DNA from: Escherichia coli
GTDB lineage: Bacteria > Pseudomonadota > Gammaproteobacteria > Enterobacterales > Enterobacteriaceae
Direction: 5' to 3' (one strand)
Assembly (NCBI RefSeq): GCF_003334385.1
Contig: NZ_QOWN01000048.1
Length of the DNA: 33,964 bases
The position numbers were made by a program, and so were the translations under genes. The stretch's first letter is position 1. Each line of letters starts with the position of its first letter. The notes beneath the pieces are model-generated. The model was not told the DNA's origin and searched no databases. It saw nothing but the letters and a program-made list of their open reading frames with translations. Shown piece after piece: positions 12,229 to 13,930 of the stretch.

Positions 12229-12567
12229 GTGTGTCTCACTTTTGTCCCAATACCAATCCGAATCCACCCTTTGTCATCATTGAGAAATGGCAAGGAAGAA
12301 AAGGATGTTACTGCACGATTTGACAAATCAGCCAGAGCTATCGCATACTGATCGCACTGAACAAATAAGCGGTCTCCGCACCCGATAGCTTTGCGGCTTT
12401 TTTATGCCTGCAATTTGGCATAGTTACATCCGTACAAAGGTCGGGTGGAGAGGCGTAATACAACACCCGCAAGGGGAATATGCCCAGAGCTTCTTATTTG
12501 GCTCAGTTGACACCCGACCGCCAGCTACTAACTGGCGGTTATAAACTAAACAAATAAGGAGGTCATC

Positions 12568-12855
12568 ATGACCAGTCAACTCATCCCCGTATTCAACGGC
12601 ACTATCGACAACGAAACAACTCTTCTAGTTAACGCTCGTGATCTACACTCTTTTCTTGGTGTGGGCAGAATGTTCGCGCACTGGGTTAAAGAGCGCATTG
12701 CTGAATATGGATTCGTTGAAAGCCTGGACTATATTTTGATTTGCCAAAATGGGCAAACCAAAGGTCGAGGAGGTGATCGCCGCCGCAAGGACTACCACCT
12801 AACTCTCGACACAGCCAAAGAGCTTGCGATGGTTGACGACTGCGTCCAATACTGA
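12568..12855 (+). CDS. Truncated or diverged copy of a phage antirepressor-like protein (AntA-type N-terminal domain)
   Basis: 95-aa ORF whose first ~85 residues are near-identical in pattern to the N-terminus of the downstream 209-aa protein (TQLIPVF.GTI.NE.TLLVNARDLH...RRRKDYHLTLDTAKELAMV). Same SD-start context GGAGGTCATCATGACC. Confidence 0.5.
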   Translation: MTSQLIPVFNGTIDNETTLLVNARDLHSFLGVGRMFAHWVKERIAEYGFVESLDYILICQNGQTKGRGGDRRRKDYHLTLDTAKELAMVDDCVQY

Positions 12856-13104
12856 CTATACTCCGCGCCGAGGCCTCGAAAACCTCCCAAAAGCGGATTA
12901 AACCAACCCCGTCAGTGTTGGATTTTTTATGCCTGTTATTCAGTGATAGCACAGTGTGCGGTCACATCCCCGATCAATGTCGGGAGGGCGACGAATACAA
13001 CACCCGCAAGGGGAATAAGTCCGCGGTATCTTTTGGGCCGTTTCGAGCCTCCCGGCACCACATCTTGTGGTGGCATTTCTCGAAAAAAGCCAAAGGAGGT
13101 CATC

Positions 13105-13734
13105 ATGACCACTCAACTCATCCCTGTGTTTGAAGGTACAATCTCAAATGAACCTACGCTTCTGGTGAACGCGCGTGATTTGCATGGATTTTTAGAGGTA
13201 GGTAAAGATTTTTCTAACTGGATACGGGCCAGGCTAAACGAGTATGGATTCGTAGAAAATTTAGACTACATTCTATTTTCGCCAAATTTGGCGAAAACTC
13301 CAGGCCGCCGCCGCAAGGATTACCACCTCACCCTCGACACAGCCAAAGAGCTTGCGATGGTTGAACGTAACGAAAAAGGCCGCCAGATACGCCGCTACTT
13401 CATCGAGTGCGAAAAGAAACTTCGCAACATTCAGCCAGTACAAGCAGAACCACAGCCGCAATTCACAGCCGAGGAAATCATCCTCCTTTGCTACATGCAG
13501 CTCTGGATGGAAAAAGCCCAGGACCTTAGCAAGCAGCTGTACCCCATAATGAAAGAGCTGAACTCCTCATACACGAACAAGCTGTATGACATTGCGTTTG
13601 AGACTATCTACATGGTGACGAAGAACAGAGATGTGCTACTGAGAGAGGCGGCACGGCTTGACCAGTCGAGTTTCGTAGTTCAGCGGGCCAGACCAATGCT
13701 GAAAAGCCTGCGGGCAAGACAATTTGAATTCTGA
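13105..13734 (+). CDS. Phage antirepressor-like protein (AntA-type N-terminal domain, full length)
   Basis: 209-aa ORF beginning MTTQLIPVFEGTISNEPTLLVNARDLHGFLEVGKDFSNWIRARLNEYGFVENLDYILF..., with a strong GGAGG Shine-Dalgarno. The ORF-track start at 12943 is an in-frame extension lacking a ribosome-binding site. Confidence 0.6.
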   Translation: MTTQLIPVFEGTISNEPTLLVNARDLHGFLEVGKDFSNWIRARLNEYGFVENLDYILFSPNLAKTPGRRRKDYHLTLDTAKELAMVERNEKGRQIRRYFIECEKKLRNIQPVQAEPQPQFTAEEIILLCYMQLWMEKAQDLSKQLYPIMKELNSSYTNKLYDIAFETIYMVTKNRDVLLREAARLDQSSFVVQRARPMLKSLRARQFEF

Positions 13735-13740
13735 TACCAA

Positions 13741-13764
13741 AGGAGCTTCGGCTCCTTTTTTTAT
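13741..13764 (+). terminator. Rho-independent terminator after the antirepressor-like gene
   Basis: AGGAGC-TTCG-GCTCCT hairpin (6-bp stem, tetraloop) followed by TTTTTTTA, 7 bp after the stop codon. Confidence 0.6.
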
Positions 13765-13930
13765 ACCTGAACGACAACGCCGCTGAAATCGAAGAGTTAA
13801 TACAATAAAGAGAAGAGCTCAGTACATTAGATAAACATTTTTTATCATTATCTCATTGCCTTTATTCAAAAAAATAGTTACATAACGTTACTAGGTAAAA
13901 TGCAAACCCTCGCTATTTTTATCAGATTGT

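Follow-up and report, generated by a model that had tools for sequence, protein, structure and literature searches.

Two consecutive gene cassettes lie in a 33,964-nucleotide stretch of the Escherichia coli chromosome (contig NZ_QOWN01000048.1; the whole stretch is hereafter called the window), each with an antirepressor-like gene, antA in unit 1 and antB in unit 2, behind a structured leader. Each unit is likely to be a self-contained control module of the c4 type, as known from the immI locus of phage P1, placed before an antirepressor-like gene. The leader shared by the two units belongs to the curated RNA family sRNA-Xcc1 (RF02221). The new content of this analysis is the reading of that leader as a c4-like antisense module on an sRNA-Xcc1 scaffold; the gene pair itself is old. 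The reading draws on family membership, on complementarity and covariation between the RNA and its target sites, on the order of the parts and on the point at which antA is truncated, while processing of the RNA, repression and action in trans are proposed by analogy with c4.

The two open reading frames (ORFs; ORF1 and ORF2) that define the units both match the Pfam family AntA (PF08346) significantly, and the antirepressor label of the pair is a putative one given by homology:

12568–12855, plus strand: antA, a truncated AntA-domain ORF of 95 amino acids (aa; Pfam AntA E = 2.9e-26; C-terminal domain absent).
13105–13734, plus strand: antB, a full-length antirepressor-like ORF of 209 aa (AntA E = 1.9e-26; P22_AR_C E = 1.2e-7).

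ORF1 and ORF2 share 69% identity across 91 residues (E = 6e-44). The AntA domain occupies residues 21–90 of ORF1 (Pfam model positions 1–66 of 68) and residues 21–89 of ORF2 (positions 1–68), and the C-terminal P22_AR_C domain is present in ORF2 only. The original prediction, made from the sequence alone, had proposed two cassettes of one architecture, and the motif positions and the ORF homology agree with it. All the motifs that it named are present: TTTTTTATGCCTG at 12398–12410 and 12923–12935, with a one-mismatch copy at 13757–13769 (0.12 matches expected by chance), the 21-mer ACAACACCCGCAAGGGGAATA at 12460–12480 and 12997–13017, and the 16-mer GGAGGTCATCATGACC at 12558–12573 and 13095–13110, which spans both start codons. 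The ORF similarity extends over the whole AntA domain and is not confined to the ribosome-binding site (RBS) and first codons, the case that the prediction had named as its refutation. Its units exist but start further upstream than it had placed them, at promoter-like sites at 12320–12349 and 12833–12862.

The gene pair appears to be antA/antB of the IbrAB genetic island of E. coli ECOR-9, since ORF2 is exactly AntB, ORF1 is the 95-aa AntA and ibrA- and ibrB-like genes come next. ORF2 equals Q8KU25_ECOLX residue for residue and its exact sequence was found on 234 contigs; the exact 95-aa protein of ORF1 was found on 153, and RefSeq labels ORF1 a partial pseudogene. According to the portion of the Pfam PF08346 text quoted in PMC10434257, E. 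coli AntA and AntB are 62% alike near their N termini; for the ECOR-9 IbrAB island it refers to Sandt, Hopper and Hill (2002). The antA/antB of that island is the source of the Pfam name AntA/AntB (PF08346). RNA modules are not mentioned in the quoted portion of that text, and the RefSeq annotation has no RNA feature there.

The leaders of both units are full-length matches to sRNA-Xcc1, covering model positions 1–87 of 87 with scores above the family gathering score of 53 bits. In the lists that follow, b' is the loop of the second hairpin of the RNA and a' the unpaired strand after it; a2 and b2 are their complements at the RBS, and a1 and b1 the second copy of these targets, upstream of the RNA.

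12439–12527, plus strand: sRNA-Xcc1 copy 1 (RF02221, 69.1 bits, E = 1e-10, full length), with the closing P1 stem at 12439–12447/12511–12519, b' at 12490–12500, a' at 12503–12508 and the tail GCCA at 12520–12523.
12516–12540, plus strand: hairpin after RNA 1, CCGCCAG/CTGGCGG, which is the hairpin of the original prediction (full-leader fold; also seen by eye in most related leaders).
12979–13064, plus strand: sRNA-Xcc1 copy 2 (RF02221, 73.4 bits, E = 9.6e-12, full length), with the P1 stem at 12979–12987/13048–13056, b' at 13029–13036, a' at 13041–13047 and the tail ACCA at 13057–13060.
13056–13072, plus strand: hairpin after RNA 2, CACCACA/TGTGGTG (full-leader fold).

Both RNAs show a three-way junction and the AAUACAA..CCCG-NAA-GGGG..AAUA hairpin in the consensus alignment and in the fold of the isolated RNAs, and the 21-mer ACAACACCCGCAAGGGGAATA is the near-invariant first hairpin of the family. 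No other Rfam family was found under the leaders at a permissive threshold. The conserved leader, the hairpin and the T-run, which the original prediction had left unexplained, are read here as parts of a c4-like antisense-RNA control module.

An exact-motif search of viral contigs recovered the conserved hairpin at 120 viral loci, in most of which the motif starts about 100–117 nucleotides (nt) 5' of a start codon. Among 42 diverse downstream ORFs, 35 carry an antirepressor-type N-terminal domain of one of six types (Bro-N in 10, KilA-N in 6, ORF6N in 6, Rha in 5, P22_AR_N in 4 and AntA in 4), and the remaining proteins are small and have no Pfam match. Past the closing stem comes an N-C-C-(C/A) tail, whose second nucleotide is C in 80 of 85 loci; on the 5' side, YAU|G is the usual context. 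In the literature, sRNA-Xcc1 is described as a trans-acting, virulence-linked small RNA (sRNA) with no established targets, and it belongs to no Rfam clan. The founding member, from an integron of Xanthomonas campestris, accumulates as a discrete 88-nt RNA in Xanthomonas (PMC2996969). A paper on APSE phages places one sRNA-Xcc1 copy 5' of an ORF6N gene, and a Xanthomonas preprint reports sRNA-Xcc1 upstream of symE in integrons, a position said to suggest "a divergent regulatory mechanism". A link of sRNA-Xcc1 to the adjacent RBS or to c4 was not found in the literature covered, which was incomplete and did not include the 2011 family paper.

A 100% identical copy of the unit 1 leader (12439–12580) is present in 179 E. 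coli genomes, O157:H7, O111 and O145 strains among them, on chromosomes and a few plasmids. It almost always occurs once per genome (maximum 2); of 185 genomes, a few at most have it twice. The ORFs behind the identical leader vary, representing different AntA alleles. A leader peptide was also considered in unit 1, where a 25-codon ORF (12480–12557) has its ATG within the conserved GGGGAATATG (12480) and its TAA just before the antA Shine-Dalgarno (SD) sequence. It was rejected as probably fortuitous, because unit 2 and several relatives of the unit 1 type have no such ATG. E. coli O22:H8 strain 154 (locus L002, 5600–5860) has a third cassette behind antB, in the order promoter TTGACA, a1 hairpin, b1, terminator and sRNA-Xcc1 (68.6 bits). 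Its first hairpin has GCC..GGC in place of CCC..GGG, a compensatory change, and its downstream BRO-family gene is frameshifted.

The principal evidence for the function of these RNAs is their complementarity to the RBS of the gene that follows. Across loci, the hairpin 2 loop b' is complementary to 7–13 nt overlapping the SD (b2), and a' is complementary to a2, which lies 10–25 nt upstream of b2. In the window, these sites are:

12544–12562, plus strand: unit 1 a2 (AACT, 12544–12547) and b2 (CAAATAAGGAG, 12551–12561), the latter overlapping the SD GGAGG (12558–12562); the b'/b2 helix has 11 nt.
13079–13099, plus strand: unit 2 a2 (CTCGAAA, 13079–13085) and b2 (CCAAAGGA, 13090–13097), the latter overlapping the SD (13094–13099); the a helix has 7 nt and the b helix 8 nt.

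Covariation of these pairings was examined in 39 loosely independent loci (<15% shared 8-mers in the variable leader). The Watson-Crick helix between the b' region and positions −24 to −4 of the locus's own gene has a mean of 6.9 nt, against 4.5 nt for the genes of other loci (area under the curve (AUC) 0.94; 0 of 5000 derangements reach the observed value), and the corresponding comparison for a'/a2 gives an AUC of 0.84. In a sliding test the signal peaks over the SD, at −24 to −4; it is absent at codons 2–8 and in an upstream control region (AUC ~0.5). This alignment-free comparison of own with other genes was used because differences in loop and spacer length would make column counts wrong; a column-based pseudoknot count on a MAFFT alignment of 13 scaffolds was discarded, as the register shifts by 1–2 columns between rows. 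Furthermore, 13 leaders with near-identical scaffolds, which precede AntA, ORF6N, KilA-N or Rha genes, have 11 distinct b' strings between them, and in every case the b2 of the leader matches its b' over 8–12 nt.

The two RNAs of the window differ in the same segments. In unit 1, b' is CUUCUUAUUUG and a' is (C)AGUU; in unit 2, b' is UCUUUUGG and a' is UUUCGAG. Isolated, both RNAs fold into the Rfam structure, and in the minimum-energy folds of both full leaders b'/b2 and a'/a2 are paired and the SD is buried. The duplex of the RNA core with its own sites is calculated at −17 to −22 kcal/mol, against −10 to −18 kcal/mol with the sites of the other unit. Because the a and b sequences differ between the units, we read them as two c4-type translational locks whose predicted keys are largely separate; the separation would not be complete, largely because the SD is common to both.

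The SD-to-start string GAGGTCATCATGAC (12558–12582 and 13095–13119) and the N-terminus M-(T/S)-x-Q recur at many loci, in cassettes whose N-terminal domains are unrelated (AntA, ORF6N, KilA-N, Rha and P22_AR_N). It therefore seems that the exchangeable module reaches a few codons into the ORF, or that those codons are constrained at the RNA level. In addition, GGUCAUCAUGACC is able to form a 5-base-pair (bp) hairpin over the AUG.

A second copy of the target, a1 and b1, lies about 50–110 nt upstream of each RNA, where a1 is mostly found in the loop of a hairpin. Upstream of their RNAs, the two units contain the following features:

12320–12349, plus strand: unit 1 promoter-like site, TTGACA-18-CATACT (consensus scan, 10/12 matches).
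12356–12369, plus strand: unit 1 a1 (ACTGA, 12356–12360) and b1 (CAAATAAG, 12362–12369), by sequence match to b2/b'.
12369–12410, plus strand: unit 1 terminator-like element, GCGG-TCT-CCGC, loop ACCCGATAGCTTT, GCGG, T6, ATGCCTG (conservation).
12833–12862, plus strand: unit 2 promoter-like site, TTGACG-18-TATACT, over the last antA codons (consensus scan, 10/12 matches).
12870–12893, plus strand: unit 2 a1 hairpin, GAGG-CCTCGAAAA-CCTC, with a1 CTCGAAA at 12875–12881, and b1 CCCAAAAG at 12886–12893.
12903–12935, plus strand: unit 2 terminator-like element, CCAAC, loop CCCGTCAGT, GTTGG, A, T6, ATGCCTG (conservation).

A TTGACA-type site was seen by eye at the same relative position, 5' of a1, in many related loci. 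Unit 1 lacks the a1 hairpin; its CAAATAAG occurs at 12362 (b1) and 12551 (b2), with the complement at 12493 (b'). In unit 2, b1 is complementary to b' over 8 nt (duplex with its own RNA core −21.8 kcal/mol), and the unit-2-type leaders of other phages start to match at the a1 hairpin. Across loci, b1 abuts the 5' side of a conserved [AG]CGG; next come CCGC, a CCCGAYAG-containing loop, GCGG and a U-run. TTTTTTATGCCTG is the U-run of this terminator-like element. The sequence and position of the element are conserved in 33 of 39 loci. In 29 of 33 loci, hairpin 2 of the same locus contains the complement of the b1 8-mer (4.5% for other loci), and b1 equals b2 in 23 of 33 (4.8% for other loci). 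Thus, a1/b1, a2/b2 and a'/b' vary together between loci, which is a three-way covariation. Pairing between CCCGAYAG, the conserved loop of the terminator, and the 5' side of the closing stem was also considered and dropped, as no covariation across loci was seen by eye.

In the proposed mechanism, a sigma-70 promoter would start a transcript that contains, in order, a1/b1, a weak conserved terminator, the ~88-nt sRNA-Xcc1 RNA, the small hairpin, a2/b2 and the ORF. The three-way-junction RNA would display b' in the loop of hairpin 2 and a' on the strand that joins hairpin 2 to the closing stem. Pairing of b' with b2 and of a' with a2 is predicted to cover the SD, and antirepressor would not be made because the paired RNA segments would keep the ribosome off. 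By analogy with c4, the RNA would be cut from the leader, RNase P making the 5' end, with the conserved RCC(A/C) tail past the closing stem; this tail and the 5' context, together with the discrete 88-nt RNA of Xanthomonas, may be taken as hints of such excision. The released RNA could then act on its own transcript and in trans, and a1/b1 on short terminated transcripts might titrate it or couple RNA binding to termination. Unit 1 has lost the C-terminal half of its gene but keeps the RNA and the a/b sites intact and the AntA-domain ORF open.

Several results weigh against this mechanism. The covariation loci all come from a single exact-motif search and therefore represent part of the family. 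The a'/a2 helix of unit 1 has only 4–5 bp, and the unit 1 RNA core is calculated to bind the RBS of unit 2 at −17.8 kcal/mol, close to the −19.8 to −21.8 kcal/mol of the matched downstream pairs. The C4, c4-a1b1 and isrK models give no match in 12100–13950 at E ≤ 10, although all three match P1, and the sRNA-Xcc1 model gives no match in P1 at E ≤ 1; the likeness to c4 may be convergent. Both terminator-like hairpins of the window are thermodynamically weak and fold no better than shuffled sequence, and the terminator scan made no call on the T-run elements as strong terminators. For these two reasons they are named terminator-like here, on the basis of conservation and of the parallel with P1 and isrK. 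Finally, the short leader RNA of the Gifsy-1 isrK locus activates translation (PMC4825925), so the sign of regulation through a1/b1 could go either way.

This last point leads to the most serious alternative, a purely cis-acting leader switch, in which the RNA is never released and b'/a' pair with b2/a2 of the same molecule to silence the mRNA. The short a1/b1 transcript would then be an anti-antisense RNA that opens the long mRNA in trans, as has been reported for the short IsrK and the isrK-orf45-anrP mRNA of Gifsy-1. The full-leader minimum-energy folds do close within one molecule, a1/b1 exactly mimic a2/b2 on a unit that ends at the terminator-like element, the corresponding segment of P1 lies under the Rfam isrK model, and the IsrK mechanism has experimental support (PMC4825925). 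However, the founding sRNA-Xcc1 is a discrete RNA and not a leader only, the 5' context and the conserved RCC tail are like those of C4, a substrate of RNase P, and copies of the RNA that lack an ORF occur in other phages, one of them directly before a terminator. We regard this alternative as unlikely, while noting that it differs from the c4-type module mainly in the release of the RNA and that both could coexist.

Control could also be exerted at transcription, as in satellite phage P4, with the RNA acting on nascent a1/b1 to promote termination at the U-run and with occlusion of the RBS secondary; neither the RNA nor the antirepressor mRNA would then be made. That b1 abuts a GCGG able to pair with the CCGC 5' arm is compatible with an antiterminator/terminator choice, as is the conservation of the element noted above, and loci of this type have been likened in structure to the P4 CI RNA with seqA/seqC (PMC4825925). 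Yet unit 2 and its relatives keep the GCGG even though it is unable to pair with the arm CCAAC, and the strongest covariation signal falls on the SD itself, which makes this explanation rather improbable.

It is very improbable that sRNA-Xcc1 acts in trans on unlinked genes of the host, the role suggested for it in Xanthomonas and Xylella, with its position beside ant-like genes incidental. The literature describes trans action, control by HrpG/HrpX and many computationally predicted targets, but the published target lists are predictions only, and additional host targets could still exist. The complementarity, on the other hand, tracks the locus's own RBS and its own upstream site and changes with both, which shows that the linked gene is the selected target. 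Lastly, the original prediction taken literally, as a simple recent tandem duplication whose shared leader is a functionless inherited flank, is scarcely credible: the ORFs are homologous over the whole AntA domain and share a 56-nt block at 95% identity, but elsewhere the units are only 56–70% identical, the leader is a curated structured-RNA family found before six unrelated N-terminal domain families, its variable loops covary with the neighbouring RBS, and the invariant unit 1 leader of the 179 genomes stands before varying ORFs.

Returning to the c4-type module, the history of the two units is recorded around the end of antA. The first copy is truncated, as had been predicted, since full-length ORF1 relatives (204–216 aa) are present in other prophages and their homology to the window ends at 12836, within ATGGTTGA. 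The promoter-like TTGACG-18-TATACT begins at 12833, the match to the start of unit-2-type leaders of other phages begins at 12869/70, and the breakpoint at 12836/7 falls within the −35 hexamer of unit 2. As ORF1 homology ends where the promoter and leader sequence of unit 2 starts, the regulatory region of unit 2 has taken the place of the C-terminal half of gene 1, possibly through TTGA microhomology at the junction.

Recombination between antirepressor cassettes, also part of the original prediction, is borne out by two observations. Compared by segment, units 1 and 2 show 56–70% identity except in the 56-nt block of 95% identity directly before the junction (12781–12836 against 13309–13364), and the remaining ORF is 64% identical; within this block copy 1 sides with copy 2 against its own closest full-length relative, a sign of gene conversion. 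In addition, at least three short-ORF alleles, 69–74% identical, all open and all ending MVDDCVQY, are present in five ynfG prophages. A recent duplication is not supported, because identity is low, the leader subtypes differ and each unit has much closer relatives in other phages. Selection on the short ORF was assessed by the ratio of nonsynonymous to synonymous substitution rates (dN/dS), but the values between alleles, 0.2–0.36, say nothing on this point, since the alleles probably came in from full-length genes by recombination. The decoy or regulatory role suggested for the short cassette is possible, and would more plausibly be exerted through the RNA than through the short protein.

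RNA copies with a missing or truncated ORF recur in other phages, which suggests that the RNA is useful by itself. One locus (L016, 4971–6332) has the RNA with an ORF6N-only ORF of 103 aa, followed by a full ORF6N + P22_AR_C gene; another (L061, 4237–4660) has the RNA with an 8-codon ORF only, then a full cassette; in a third (L020, 7043–7400), a terminator comes immediately after the RNA. As in the window, where antA is broken within the −35 TTGACG of the unit 2 promoter, the first ORF of L016 is interrupted in the −35 TTGACG of the unit that follows it, with its stop codon there. Furthermore, Xylella fastidiosa Temecula1 carries five sRNA-Xcc1 copies with ~381-nt spacing in a genomic island (1,313,466–1,315,082; PMC12189769), and this array may consist mostly of RNA-only cassettes, because such spacing leaves scant room for full ORFs.

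A broader and more doubtful proposal is that sRNA-Xcc1 modules form a large set of largely orthogonal RNA locks in temperate phages of Proteobacteria, in which cassettes with truncated or lost ORFs are kept for silencing in trans. Specificity would reside in about 8–12 loop nucleotides, and the locks would stand before antirepressor-like and toxic genes. The kept RNAs (those of antA, L016, L061 and L020) might silence the matching antirepressor of a resident or incoming phage. Tandem arrays might then be RNA-based heteroimmunity arrays, like immI of P1/P7 but combinatorial, and the recurrent break at the −35 hexamer of the next promoter might reflect the building of such arrays.

The chromosomal setting of the units is that of a prophage. 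In the window, ynfE and ynfF are intact and the prophage interrupts ynfG, a 4Fe-4S subunit gene (12039–12152) broken after ~30 codons near 12130; the interrupted ORF reads through into phage DNA to a stop at 12152. Units 1 and 2 are the first prophage features past this junction. The same gene arrangement is found at 89–97% identity in 64 of 5426 complete E. coli genomes, and these 64 share the ynfG insertion site. The features that follow the cassettes, the genes being named after RefSeq in the homologous region of strain G1/2, are:

13739–13769, plus strand: intrinsic terminator downstream of antB, AAAGGAGC-TTCG-GCTCCTTT with a T-run (terminator scan).
13931–15157: ibrA-like PAPS-reductase gene, directly after the cassettes.
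15142–15786: ibrB-like ParB-domain gene.
15875–16399, minus strand: Panacea-domain gene.
16550–24928, minus strand: LPD38-domain gene of 2792 aa, whose G1/2 homologue is marked frameshifted by RefSeq.

Beside the host/prophage junction, the palindrome-containing ATGCAAAGCTTTGT occurs twice in direct orientation, with 10 nt between the two copies (12198–12235). The terminator scan flagged the pair as a 17-pair hairpin, and it could be a protein-binding site or a piece of an attachment-site arm.

sRNA-Xcc1 has been annotated as a curated family for more than a decade with no established target, and the evidence above assigns it one, namely the RBS of the next gene downstream. If the c4-type module is correct, it would explain the silence of Bro-N, KilA-N, ORF6N, Rha, P22_AR_N and AntA genes in many prophages and would bear on the integron symE toxin, which also has sRNA-Xcc1 upstream, and specificity groups could govern cross-talk among co-resident prophages. 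For engineering, the loci would be a natural source of short RNA/RBS pairs that can be swapped. For annotation, RF02221 matches should be read jointly with the downstream ORF, as "pseudogene" cassettes may still encode an active RNA.

Among known systems, the closest in layout is immI of P1/P7 (c4, icd and ant; C4 RF01695 and c4-a1b1 RF03163, clan CL00128), in which the order of parts is that of the window units: promoters, a1, b1, GCGG-ACAA-CCGC..GCGG-UAUUUUU, c4 RNA, a2, b2, icd and ant. The C4 consensus also has the topology of sRNA-Xcc1, with a closing stem, a tetraloop hairpin, a b'-loop hairpin, an unpaired a' and a CC-rich 3' tail (CCACC in C4). RNase P cuts the C4 RNA from the operon transcript; part of the RBS is covered by the b' loop of C4, and specificity comes from a' (PMC5320573). 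The same logic is seen here, with b' over the RBS, a' binding upstream and few loop nucleotides setting specificity. In both window units, a'/b' are complementary to a2/b2 with b2 at the RBS (b helices of 11 and 8 nt), and the second target copy a1/b1 lies upstream of the RNA in the same transcript direction. The differences are nonetheless clear. Hairpin 1 of sRNA-Xcc1 has a large near-invariant internal-loop motif and a GNRA-type loop where c4 has UUCG, and, unlike c4, the units have an extra hairpin after the RNA. They regulate the antirepressor-like ORF itself, without the icd-like upstream ORF of P1, and the downstream families (AntA, Bro-N, KilA-N, ORF6N, Rha and P22_AR_N, with symE in Xanthomonas integrons) differ from that of P1. 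A Rfam search of P1 found C4 and c4-a1b1, with isrK below its gathering score (35 against 50 bits) over a1/b1 and the terminator; in 20 loci related to the window units, the isrK and c4-a1b1 models gave no match at the gathering score. As there is neither a model match nor a shared Rfam clan, the window RNAs are said to work like c4 and are not filed as members of C4.

In the isrK-orf45-anrP locus of Gifsy-1 (isrK RF01394), a short leader RNA stops at a terminator, with partial read-through into the antirepressor operon (PMC4825925). A stable processed RNA lies downstream of the terminator in both Gifsy-1 (STnc1160) and P4 (CI), and regulation in both proceeds by pairing among leader segments (PMC4825925). 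The short isrK RNA differs in activating translation through an upstream ORF, and the window has no match to the isrK model; the P4 CI RNA with seqA/seqC acts on termination and not on the RBS. sRNA-Xcc1 is therefore placed beside P1 c4, P4 CI and the isrK locus as a further scaffold for one control logic. In phage P22, the sar antisense RNA blocks the RBS of the antirepressor gene ant; its transcription runs on the opposite strand, over the start of ant. By comparison, the window RNAs are encoded on the same strand as their genes and upstream of them, and pair through short loop sequences.

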